Shown in pieces: positions 15,775 to 50,094 of a stretch of DNA of 64,000 bases. The first letter of the stretch is position 1, and every line of letters starts with the position of its first letter. This DNA comes from Escherichia coli (GTDB lineage: Bacteria > Pseudomonadota > Gammaproteobacteria > Enterobacterales > Enterobacteriaceae). The position numbers and the translations under genes were made by a program. The notes beneath the pieces are model-generated. The model was given only the letters and a program-made list of their open reading frames with translations, was not told the DNA's origin and searched no databases. The stretch lies in the NCBI RefSeq assembly GCF_024502345.1, contig NZ_JALDNN010000001.1. One strand, written 5' to 3'.

Positions 15775-15804
15775 TTCATAACCATCAGTCCTCAATGACG
15801 ATTA

Positions 15805-15839
15805 AACACCATTGCCTGCGCAATGGTGTTTTTGTTTTT
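15805..15839 (+). terminator. Rho-independent terminator after sra
   Basis: Stem aacaccattg/caatggtgtt followed by a long T-run. Confidence 0.75.
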
Positions 15840-46959: not shown

Positions 46960-47153
46960 GTACGGGCGTCCAGCCAGATGAATAAAACGCGCGCAAATAT
47001 GCGTCATTTTTTGACGTGCATCAAGTTTTTTCACCAGTTAGAGAAAAAATCATCAAACAGCAACTTGCCCTTATCCATCTTCAGAATGAGTATTATTGCG
47101 GATTTTCTTAACCCGTACTATACACATAGGGGCAATGATAAAAGGTGGCAAAA

Positions 47154-47249
47154 ATGAATGTTTCCAGTAGAACTGTAGTACTGATAAATGTCTTTGCTGC
47201 TGTTGGTTTGTTTACTCTTATCTCTATGAGATTTGGCTGGTTTATTTGA
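47154..47249 (+). CDS. yncL: Small membrane protein YncL (31 aa)
   Basis: ATG preceded by SD aaaggtgg; translation MNVSSRTVVLINVFAAVGLFTLISMRFGWFI; too short for the ORF track. Confidence 0.7.
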   Translation: MNVSSRTVVLINVFAAVGLFTLISMRFGWFI

Positions 47250-47270: not shown

Positions 47271-47308
47271 ACGTACTGTCAGAGAAATCAACTCTCTGAC
47301 AGTACGCA
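47271..47308. repeat. Perfect 12-13 bp inverted repeat (hairpin) just downstream of yncL
   Basis: acgtactgtcagag ... ctctgacagtacg with an 8-10 nt loop; no clear U-tract. Confidence 0.6.
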
Positions 47309-47650
47309 AGATCTTCTCATACTCTCCAGGTTTACAACATTATCCTTAATATTTACTTCTTTTTGCTGGCATCTACATTGAAATGAGTAGAAAACATCCC
47401 CCTACTGTCGTCTATACAAACAGCTTACTGATTCAAAGGGAATCTTGTTTTCACATTTTTCTATCATGAATACTTTATACGCGCGGGAGTCTATAAATGC
47501 TTTATACTTTCAAGGAATAACGCAAATATAAAAAGATGGCGTAAAGTATATGCATGGCAGGATGTTTGCAACCTCCTTCATGACGCTGCCCCATTGAAAT
47601 TGCAAACCCCGCCCTGGTTATCTTGCCCATTTATCATGCAAAACAGATAA

Positions 47651-48460
47651 TTATAGGCCTCTGAATACCTCAGAAAGATTGAATTTTTTATAGTCCCTCT
47701 CTTGAATATTTCCATTTGAAATCAATCGATTCATCTCTTCAACAAAATAATTTATATCATCACACTTGTTATTATCCGGAAGATCTGAGTAGTTATAATT
47801 CCACCATTTTATTCTCAACAGTTCATCAATAACATTTGAATCAAACCTAAATCTGATTATTTTTGCAGGAACTCCTGCAACTATGGCATATGGGGGCACA
47901 TCTTTGGTAACAACGGAATTGGCAGCAATAACAGCACCATCACCTATTGTGATGCCACCTTTCAATACAACATCATTTCCTATCCAGACATCATTTCCTA
48001 TAATCGGATTTTCAGGTTTTGTAATGAATGGTTTCAATGTCCAGCTACGTTCAAACTCACTCATAGCAAACTTATCAAATTCACCGTTATAAGTCATCAT
48101 GTGAGTAGTAAAACGATTCAAAGAATGATTTCCACCCATTATTTTTACATTTGATGCAATACTACAAAATCGACCTATACGTATATTCCCTGAAAAATGA
48201 CAGGTCGGAAATGAAAAAGCGCCGACACTGGAGAAATTTTTTACAGGCATTGTTGAATATTCTTCAGCAATAACATTATCTTCAATTGTTATCTTGTCAC
48301 CTTTTGAGAAAAGAAATAAATTCCTTTCTTTATACGACTTCTTCCCCTTATGATTTAAAAAGATTTTATTATCCATACAAAACTCAAAGTGTTTTTTCGT
48401 CCATCTGAAGGTAAGGGGTTTATTTTTATCTTCCGTGAATTTGTACAATTGAACTTTCAT
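47651..48460 (-). CDS. Hexapeptide-repeat acetyltransferase, XAT family (CatB/Vat-like)
   Basis: 269-aa ORF; the C-terminal half (…GRFCSIASNVKIMGGNHSLNRF…IGNDVWIGNDVVLKGGITIGDGAVIAANSVVTKDVPPYAIVAGVPAKIIRFRFDSNVIDELLRIKWWNY…) closely resembles the conserved core of CatB chloramphenicol and Vat streptogramin-A acetyltransferases. Markedly AT-rich. Confidence 0.75.
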   Translation of the reverse strand: MKVQLYKFTEDKNKPLTFRWTKKHFEFCMDNKIFLNHKGKKSYKERNLFLFSKGDKITIEDNVIAEEYSTMPVKNFSSVGAFSFPTCHFSGNIRIGRFCSIASNVKIMGGNHSLNRFTTHMMTYNGEFDKFAMSEFERSWTLKPFITKPENPIIGNDVWIGNDVVLKGGITIGDGAVIAANSVVTKDVPPYAIVAGVPAKIIRFRFDSNVIDELLRIKWWNYNYSDLPDNNKCDDINYFVEEMNRLISNGNIQERDYKKFNLSEVFRGL

Positions 48461-48633
48461 TGTTAATACTTCTACTTATAAAGTATTAGTTTAATAACGA
48501 TACTCTAAAGCCTTATGCTAATCAACTGTGACAGGATGAAAAATCGCCATCAAACATTTAGCCTAATTTTTACGCTAGTTATTAATGTAATCATTCTAAT
48601 ACTTAACCGCCATTAAACTCAGAACCGAAAACG

Positions 48634-48660
48634 ATAGTGGCCGTCCTATAACAGCCACTA
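48634..48660 (-). terminator. Putative terminator after patD
   Basis: agtggc/gccact hairpin just downstream of the patD stop on the minus strand. Confidence 0.45.
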
Positions 48661-48669
48661 ACATCTAAC

Positions 48670-50094
48670 TTAATGTTTAACCATGACGTGGCGGACGACG
48701 GTGTAATCCTCCAGCCCATAAAGTGACATATCCTTGCCGTAACCAGAAAGTTTCTGCCCACCGTGCGGCATTTCACTTACCAGCATGAAATGGGTATTGA
48801 CCCAGGTACAACCATATTGCAGTCGTGCGCTGACGCGATGCGCCCTGCCCACATCTTTCGTCCATACCGAAGATGCAAGTCCGTACTGGCTGTCATTCGC
48901 CCAGTTCACCACCTGTTCTTCGTTGTCGAAGAGCGTAACACTCACTACTGGACCAAATACCTCTTTTTGCACGATGGCATCGTCCTGTAATGCGCCAGCC
49001 AGCAGCGTCGGCTCATAGTAATAGCCATTACCCTTGCGCTTTTCACCGCCAGTGATCACTTTGATGTGCCCTGTCGCTTTCGCCTCTTCTACTGCCTTGC
49101 TGACGCGTTCGAGATGCGCCAGCGAGCTTAAAGGTCCAAGCTCCGTAGACTCGTCATCCGGCGCACCAGATTTTAACGTTGCCACTGCAGCACCGAGTTT
49201 TTCCACCAACGTATCGTAAATGCCTTTTTGCGCGTAGATCCGACAAGCCGCAGTACAATCCTGTCCGGCATTGTAATAGCCAAATGTACGTACACCTTCG
49301 ACCACTGCTTCAATATCCGCATCATCAAAAACAATCACTGGCGCTTTGCCACCAAGTTCCATATGAGTTCGCTTAATGGACGGCGCGGTATGGCTGATGA
49401 TGTGCTCGCCGGTGGCGATAGAGCCCGTCAGCGACACCATCCGCACTTTGGGATGACCGGTCAGCGGATCGCCCACCGTTTTGCCTCTGCCAAACAGCAC
49501 ATTAATCACGCCTGCCGGGAAGATATCTTTCGCCAGCCCTGCCAACTTCAACGCGGTCAGCGGGGTAATTTCTGATGGTTTAAGCACTACGCAGTTCCCT
49601 GCCGCCAGCGCCGGAGCAAGTTTCCACGCTGCCATCATCAGCGGATAATTCCACGGTGCGATAGAAGCCACGACCCCCAACGGATCGCGACGGATCATCG
49701 AAGTATGACCTTCAAGATATTCACCTGCCGCCAGACCATTCAGACAGCGCGCCGCACCCGCGAAAAAGCGAAAAACATCGACAATCGCCGGGATTTCATC
49801 ATTGAACGCACTATGCAGCGGTTTGCCACAATTACGGGACTCCAGTTCGGCAAAAACCTGACCATTTTCTTCGATTACATCAGCCAGTTTCAGCAGACAT
49901 TCCGCACGCACTTTCGGCGTGGTTTGCCCCCATTCGGCAAATGCTGCATCTGCCGCGCGCACAGCAGCATCGACCTGCTCTGCGGATGCCTCGGCAATCT
50001 CCAGTAAAACGTCCCCCGTTGCCGGACTATAGACAGGCTGTTTTTCCCCTTCGCCGCTAACCAGTTCTCCGTTAATCAGTAACTTATGTTGCAT
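48670..50094 (-). CDS. patD: Gamma-aminobutyraldehyde dehydrogenase (aldehyde dehydrogenase family)
   Basis: 474-aa ORF with ALDH catalytic region (…ELGGKAP…, …GQDCTAACR…); downstream of ydcSTUV. Confidence 0.9.

Follow-up and report, generated by a model that had tools for sequence, protein, structure and literature searches.

In Escherichia coli, Rho-dependent transcripts have been found to end sharply right after stable stem-loops that have no U-tract (Dar and Sorek, 2018, NAR, PMC6061677). These stem-loops protect the RNA against PNPase and RNase II, and C exceeds G in the sequence downstream of them (PMC6061677). Protective stem-loops of this class are also credited to Wang et al. (2019, PNAS), as relayed by Adams et al. 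(2021, eLife, PMC7815308). The canonical intrinsic terminator is characterized by a GC-rich stem followed by a U-tract of 7–8 nt, an RNA end 7–9 nt after the stem, and independence of Rho. Two other kinds of element are pertinent where genes converge. REP/BIME elements are intergenic palindromes that can lie between convergent genes and are able to stabilize the upstream mRNA. Bidirectional terminators of convergent gene pairs were reportedly described by Ju and co-workers in 2019.

The inverted repeat considered here lies 3′ of yncL, which encodes a small membrane protein. It is a real element, is under selection, and is of a known RNA kind. It is probably the stem-loop that defines the 3′ end of a Rho-terminated, short, sigma-S-dependent yncL mRNA and blocks exonucleases there. 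The particular case of the yncL hairpin is seemingly undiscussed in the searchable literature, though the 3′ end itself stands unlabelled in a published table.

The locus was analysed in a stretch of 64 000 nucleotides of E. coli DNA, here termed the window, and positions refer to the window unless another source is named. The local gene order on the E. coli chromosome is mnaT, ydcZ (+), ydcY, ortT (−), yncL (+), the islet, patD (−). The features are as follows.

47154–47249, + strand: yncL coding sequence, 31 amino acids (MNVSSRTVVLINVFAAVGLFTLISMRFGWFI), from the open reading frame list and the sequence; E. coli records that match it carry the yncL annotation.
47272–47285, + strand: left (5′) hairpin arm, CGTACTGTCAGAGA, identical in the six E. 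coli sequences compared and covarying with the right arm across genera.
47286–47292, + strand: hairpin loop, AATCAAC, the part that varies among E. coli sequences; K-12 has AAATCAGTG in its place and a stem of 13 bp.
47293–47306, + strand: right (3′) arm of the hairpin, TCTCTGACAGTACG, from the repeat finder, our own scan and covariation.
47309, + strand: inferred mature 3′ end of yncL mRNA, the equivalent of MG1655 1517039 (−), transferred through the K-12 alignment.
47307–47348, + strand: conserved C-rich, G-poor block ending in ATTATCCTTA, with 12 C and 3 G, a candidate Rho loading (rut-like) region.
47346–48679, no strand assigned: AT-rich islet of ∼1.32 kb, delimited by comparing K-12 with the window at both junctions; it is context and lies outside the hairpin element.
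47651–48460, − strand: gene for a CatB-related O-acetyltransferase, carried by the islet as its cargo and convergent with yncL in this strain.
48670–50094, − strand: patD, encoding aminobutyraldehyde dehydrogenase; only 39 nt separate its stop codon from the hairpin in K-12.

The two arms, as reported by the repeat finder, are 14 nt long, 100% complementary and separated by 7 nt, and the stem begins 22 nt past the yncL stop codon. An earlier note on this DNA had described a perfect palindrome of 12–13 bp about 20 nt after the stop and without a U-tract. The palindrome, its place and the missing U-tract are borne out, and only the length needs amending, as the stem has 14 bp in the window and 13 bp in K-12. 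The stem is followed by CAAGAUCUUCUC (next bases CAAGATCTTCTC). Our own scan shows this to be the longest perfect inverted repeat with a 3–12 nt loop in the 64 kb window, and arms of 12 nt or more were seen in none of 30 locally shuffled windows. The GC content of the stem is 50%. The RNA of the yncL (+) strand folds with −28.5 kcal/mol (z = −4.45; none of 200 shuffles as good), and the stem forms in both the minimum free energy and the centroid fold of the modelled full-length yncL transcript. The opposite strand of the palindrome folds with −29.5 kcal/mol (z = −3.3). As the Escherichia stem is perfectly palindromic, sequence alone does not tell which strand is used. No match overlapping the hairpin was found among the covariance models of Rfam 15, with E values up to 10. 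A promoter-like match that extends over the right arm, CTGACA-16-CATACT, was judged to be fortuitous: such sites are more numerous in shuffled sequences than in the region itself, and the match is not conserved in Citrobacter.

The second-longest perfect hairpin of the window, at 15804–15831 (AAACACCATTGC/GCAATGGTGTTT), is a separate case. It is followed by a T-rich run in K-12 and matches a very strong Term-seq end listed as 'orphan' (MG1655 1555765; 535,854 reads at OD 2.0). It is the canonical intrinsic terminator of an abundant stationary-phase transcript.

The distribution of the hairpin in the species was determined with a 55 nt query centred on the palindrome, matched at full length and at least 90% identity in 5426 complete E. 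coli genomes. The hairpin is found at one locus in 5411 of these, K-12 included. The median of two 'places' per genome returned by this query reflects the palindrome matching itself on both strands, and the locus is single. Within the 64 kb window, a search that allowed up to two mismatches gave no second copy of the arm sequence. The proposal in the earlier note that the palindrome might represent a repeat family is thus not upheld, and REP/BIME or any other dispersed family is ruled out by the single locus per genome. The yncL hairpin resembles REP/BIME elements in being an intergenic palindrome between convergent genes that may stabilize the upstream mRNA, but it bears no similarity to the REP consensus, nor is it rich in GC. 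Genuine REP-like elements do fill the equivalent patD–ortT spacer in some genera that have no yncL.

In K-12 the hairpin has a 13 bp stem and a 9 nt loop and lies inside the 96 nt spacer between the convergent genes yncL and patD. This settles the question raised previously of whether K-12 carries the palindrome at the yncL 3′ end. Six E. coli sequences, chosen to span 91–100% identity, differ in the loop and flanks only, and the stem is unchanged. The two main loop alleles, AATCAAC with a 14 bp stem and AAATCAGTG with a 13 bp stem, are three adjacent substitutions apart (window 47286–47292 compared with positions 1745–1753 of locus L001 of the comparative set described below). The loop allele is not linked to the islet: strain 1585m1 has the loop of the window and no islet.

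The islet has a GC content of 29–38%, starts ∼40 nt beyond the stem, and is bounded by an imperfect 11 bp direct repeat, CTTAATATTTA at 47346–47356 and CTTAATGTTTA at 48669–48679. The right copy includes the patD stop codon. As judged from its sequence, this repeat could be a target-site duplication, or it could be a substrate for short-repeat deletion. A 661 nt query over yncL and the islet edge finds a match in 5415 of the 5426 genomes, and the islet is present in only 1154. In islet-free genomes, K-12 among them, the match passes the hairpin up to query position 316 (window 47355) and is then followed directly by patD. Roughly 4,260 E. coli genomes other than K-12 also carry the hairpin and have no islet.

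These counts bear on a DNA-level explanation, in which a protein binds the palindrome, or the palindrome serves as a recombination or junction signal of the islet. The palindrome does contain TACTGT...ACAGTA, which is similar to LexA half-sites, and several lineages have different cargo DNA ∼40 nt away. The SOS box has CTGT and ACAG spaced by 8 nt. In the hairpin this spacing is 19 nt, however, and the site is at the 3′ end of a gene and occurs as a single copy. Furthermore, the arms covary to maintain pairing and do not keep a half-site sequence (see below), so that a palindromic operator such as a LexA box was rejected. An islet junction, att site or terminal inverted repeat was likewise rejected on the basis of 5411 genomes with the hairpin compared with 1154 with the islet, and of an islet boundary that lies at 47346–47356. 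The suggestion of a junction feature made in the earlier note therefore fails by the comparison that the note itself had proposed, and its suggestion of a protein-binding palindrome finds no support, given arms that change together with no fixed half-site. A DNA-level role is considered very improbable.

The position between the ATTATCCTTA block and patD holds different cargo in other lineages (L004, 1759–2091; L014, 1316–2077; L026, 1306–2091; L011, about 1700–2215). In Citrobacter amalonaticus it has a 110 amino acid open reading frame, and in Citrobacter werkmanii and Citrobacter youngae an AraC-like regulator, with patD not found within 2.2 kb. A genome of an Escherichia cryptic clade has other DNA there, together with the left junction sequence of the window. 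A remnant that resembles the patD 3′ end (TTAATATGTAAC) is found beside the block in Citrobacter. On these sequence comparisons the position looks like a small insertion hot spot. A terminator-like hairpin of 11 pairs with the tail TCGTTTTCGG is also present in the right end of the islet, just past the patD stop (48635–48660, − strand). Thus patD appears to have its own 3′ hairpin, from the inserted DNA, in islet-bearing strains.

Phylogenetic comparisons were made with 80 loci fetched via the neighbouring OrtT protein, since YncL, at 31 amino acids, is too short for a protein search. Among these loci, those of Escherichia, Citrobacter, Salmonella and Intestinirhabdus carry yncL, and Pluralibacter has a distant form of it; the gene is absent from Enterobacter, Kosakonia, Lelliottia and others. 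Escherichia, Citrobacter and Salmonella have the hairpin at equal distance 3′ of yncL. The arm pairs are TGTCAGAGA/TCTCTGACA in Escherichia, TGGCAGAGAG/CTCTCTGCCA in Citrobacter and TGGCGGGGAGG/CCTCTCCGCCA in Salmonella, and the pairing is kept in each. Paired changes at the base of the stem are found even within Escherichia (CGTAC/GTACG, CGCAC/GTGCG and CATAC/GTATG). RNAalifold gives a consensus core of 9 bp with both-side changes in three pairs. When a 15-pair model is applied, 83.9% of cells pair, as opposed to 35–52% with the partners slid. Both-side changes occur in eight pairs of this model, a number reached by 3 of 500 shuffles, and the covariation score of 0.225 (0.125 in shuffles) is reached by none of 500. 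A comparison of G-U pairs with A-C mismatches, made as a test of strand, gave 13 against 22 cells, mostly in poorly aligned basal pairs.

The hairpin also remains adjacent to yncL in loci where patD has been displaced or is not found within 2.2 kb. In genera where patD neighbours ortT and yncL is lacking, the spacer contains unrelated GC hairpins or REP-like elements, and the yncL hairpin is missing. Since the arms covary with complementarity kept, and since the hairpin follows yncL, the structure appears to be selected in the yncL transcript and not as a protein half-site.

At the RNA level, a 3′ end has been mapped in K-12. Supplementary file 1 of Adams et al. lists a Term-seq 3′ end at MG1655 1517039 (−) in all three conditions, with 75,265 reads in LB at OD 0.4 and 536,300 in LB at OD 2.0, and gives the flanking sequence TTTGCACGCAGCACGTACTGTCAGAGAAATCAGTGCTCTGACAGTACGCAAGATCATCTCA (PMC7815308). 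The 3′ end is position 51 of the 61 nt strings in that file, a register that was checked on the sgrS and thrL rows. When placed on the K-12 alignment, the yncL RNA ends ...CUCUGACAGUACGCAA-3′, 3 nt past the last paired base, which corresponds to 47309 of the window. The peak is labelled only 'antisense to patD' (PMC7815308). It lies 37 nt from patD and, at 60 nt from the yncL stop codon, outside the 50 nt within which that study calls an end 'primary'. Between 1516900 and 1517299 no further curated 3′ end is listed on either strand in the three Term-seq conditions. Mapped transcript ends, which the earlier note had proposed as a check, thus place an end at the hairpin, and of its two suggestions of a terminator or an RNA-stabilizing hairpin it is the stabilizing, end-defining form that is supported.

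The seven-fold higher count at OD 2.0 fits expression in stationary phase. The yncL transcript of Salmonella is a discrete small RNA that depends on sigma-S and was originally annotated as an sRNA, STnc1110 (PMC5437024). Upstream of yncL, the sequence CGTACTATACACATAG at 47110–47130 resembles an extended −10 element of the sigma-S type (CTATACT-like). This putative element fits both the reported sigma-S dependence and the count at OD 2.0. Adams et al. also list a weak 'orphan' 3′ end of 848 reads at MG1655 1517357 (+), 32 nt upstream of the ortT start and in the ortT 5′ UTR (PMC7815308). It corresponds to about 46990–47000 on the − strand of the window, and a terminator-like hairpin is flagged nearby on the opposite (+) strand at 46987–47004. 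This end could represent attenuation of the toxin gene ortT.

A Rho termination region is found further down the same strand as yncL. Supplementary file 2 of Adams et al. places it at 1516753 (−), with a Rho score of 16.6 and p = 5e-21; reads upstream and downstream were 220 and 9 in untreated cells and 106 and 72 with bicyclomycin (PMC7815308). The downstream/upstream ratio thereby goes from 0.04 to 0.68, a 16.6-fold rise. The region is 286 nt downstream of the yncL 3′ end, a distance that is approximate; the position given is the most significant one per 800 nt window, and it applies to K-12 only. We infer that this region reflects read-through from yncL. The sequence immediately downstream of the hairpin is also biased in composition: the 100 nt from 47307 to 47406 have a C/G ratio of 2.4, which ranks at the 99.4th percentile among 100 nt windows of the 64 kb. 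The excess of C over G is displayed by all Escherichia and Citrobacter rows and is lost in Salmonella.

The transcript data are all from K-12, from which the window strain differs beyond about 47349, in the islet. The K-12 3′ end and Rho behaviour presumably hold in the islet-bearing strain as well.

The features of the yncL hairpin can be compared with the two kinds of transcript end described above. At the sequence level it has the properties listed by Dar and Sorek, namely a stable stem with no U-tract, an RNA end at +3 and an excess of C over G in the sequence that follows; downstream Rho termination sensitive to bicyclomycin is seen as well, in K-12 only. The likeness to the protective stem-loops of Dar and Sorek (2018) and, as relayed by Adams et al., of Wang et al. 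(2019, PNAS) extends to the stem without a U-tract, the adjacent RNA end, the downstream C bias, and the bicyclomycin-sensitive region further down the same strand. The hairpin differs in that its stem is unusually long and perfect (14 bp) and that the transcript is a very short small-protein mRNA (about 180 nt); exonuclease protection is ascribed to it here by analogy. Because of the stem-loop, the +3 end, the lack of a U-tract, the excess of C over G and the Rho region, it is read as a protective 3′ stem-loop.

The following sequence of events can be proposed. RNA polymerase would transcribe past the hairpin into untranslated, C-rich and G-poor sequence. Rho would load on this sequence and terminate transcription within a few hundred nucleotides. 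The 3′-to-5′ exonucleases PNPase and RNase II would then trim the tail until blocked by the 14 bp stem, and trimming would leave a sharp and stable end ∼3 nt beyond it. The hairpin would set the mRNA end and protect the message, and release of the polymerase would not be effected by the hairpin itself. By analogy with the described class, trimming and protection, as opposed to hairpin-driven release, probably make the end.

A different possibility is that the hairpin, perhaps with NusA/NusG or an outer helix, pauses and releases the polymerase as a non-canonical intrinsic terminator, and that Rho mops up the read-through. The location just past the stop codon and a stem energy within the range of intrinsic terminators are in keeping with this, and an outer helix, GAUUUUGC/GCAAGAUC, is predicted that can stack on the stem in E. 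coli. However, in other Escherichia lineages a change of GCAAGATC to GTTAGATC disrupts this helix and is not compensated, and the helix was dropped as a functional part because of this lack of conservation. The homologous hairpin of Salmonella (L008 and L012) has an extra GCG/CGC clamp followed by a tract of U5–U6, and Pluralibacter has a canonical terminator at the equivalent position, with an A-tract, hairpin and U-tract. In sequence, the Salmonella hairpin thus looks like an intrinsic terminator, with an apparent switch towards intrinsic termination. Mixed or transitional termination cases are also discussed by Dar and Sorek (PMC6061677). In contrast, the hairpins of Escherichia and Citrobacter have neither a U-tract nor an upstream A-tract. 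Among the 8 nt that follow the E. coli stem only 2 are U, and a terminator scan that looks for at least five T in eight bases gave no hit at this site. The end was mapped to +3 and not to +7 to +9 within a U-tract, and bicyclomycin increases the downstream/upstream ratio as described above. A canonical intrinsic terminator is rejected on these grounds, and the non-canonical form is considered unlikely.

Another explanation is that the palindrome is shared by the two strands and caps the transcripts of yncL as well as those of patD or the acetyltransferase gene, and that the patD–yncL pair is an excludon node, with coupling by antisense pairing and RNase III. The perfect palindrome, with its equally good fold on the − strand, would suit such a function, as would the location in K-12, 39 nt past the patD stop. 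ExcludonFinder lists patD–yncL among the convergent excludons of MG1655 (2025, PMC12288877), and overlapping transcription is thus reported for a pair with a 96 nt spacer. In addition, yncL mRNA is one of the transcripts that were followed up in arrays of RNase E/RNase III mutants. Nevertheless, the end is mapped on one strand only, with no patD-sense 3′ end between 1516900 and 1517299 in three Term-seq conditions, and the hairpin does not have the A-tract/U-tract symmetry of bidirectional terminators. It follows yncL and not patD, the patD genera without yncL using unrelated hairpins or REP elements, and G-U pairs of the Salmonella stem would be A-C mismatches on the patD-sense strand. A bidirectional role therefore appears quite unlikely.

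In Escherichia and Citrobacter, at least four different cargo segments are found at the patD stop, and every one has left a short copy that resembles the patD 3′ end. One may speculate that the symmetric hairpin and the conserved ATTATCCTTA block together form a two-strand element that terminates the two convergent transcripts and couples yncL to patD or the islet as an excludon node, or that they signal a hot spot of repeated insertion at the patD stop, but we consider this doubtful.

The protective 3′ stem-loop remains the preferred reading, and a specialist would find no surprise in it: the yncL hairpin most likely represents a common form of bacterial transcript end that has been described before. 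Its significance is in part one of annotation. A strong Term-seq peak in published E. coli data, labelled antisense to patD and lying outside the 50 nt rule for a 'primary' end, can be assigned to the mRNA of yncL. With respect to the acetyltransferase islet, insertion took place beyond the end of the yncL transcript, and the structure of the mRNA should therefore be unaltered, though the sequence on which Rho acts is replaced. In terms of terminator evolution, one homologous hairpin supported by covariation has a U-tract in Salmonella and lacks it in Escherichia and Citrobacter. These variants agree with the notion of a drift of terminators between the Rho-dependent and the intrinsic mode.
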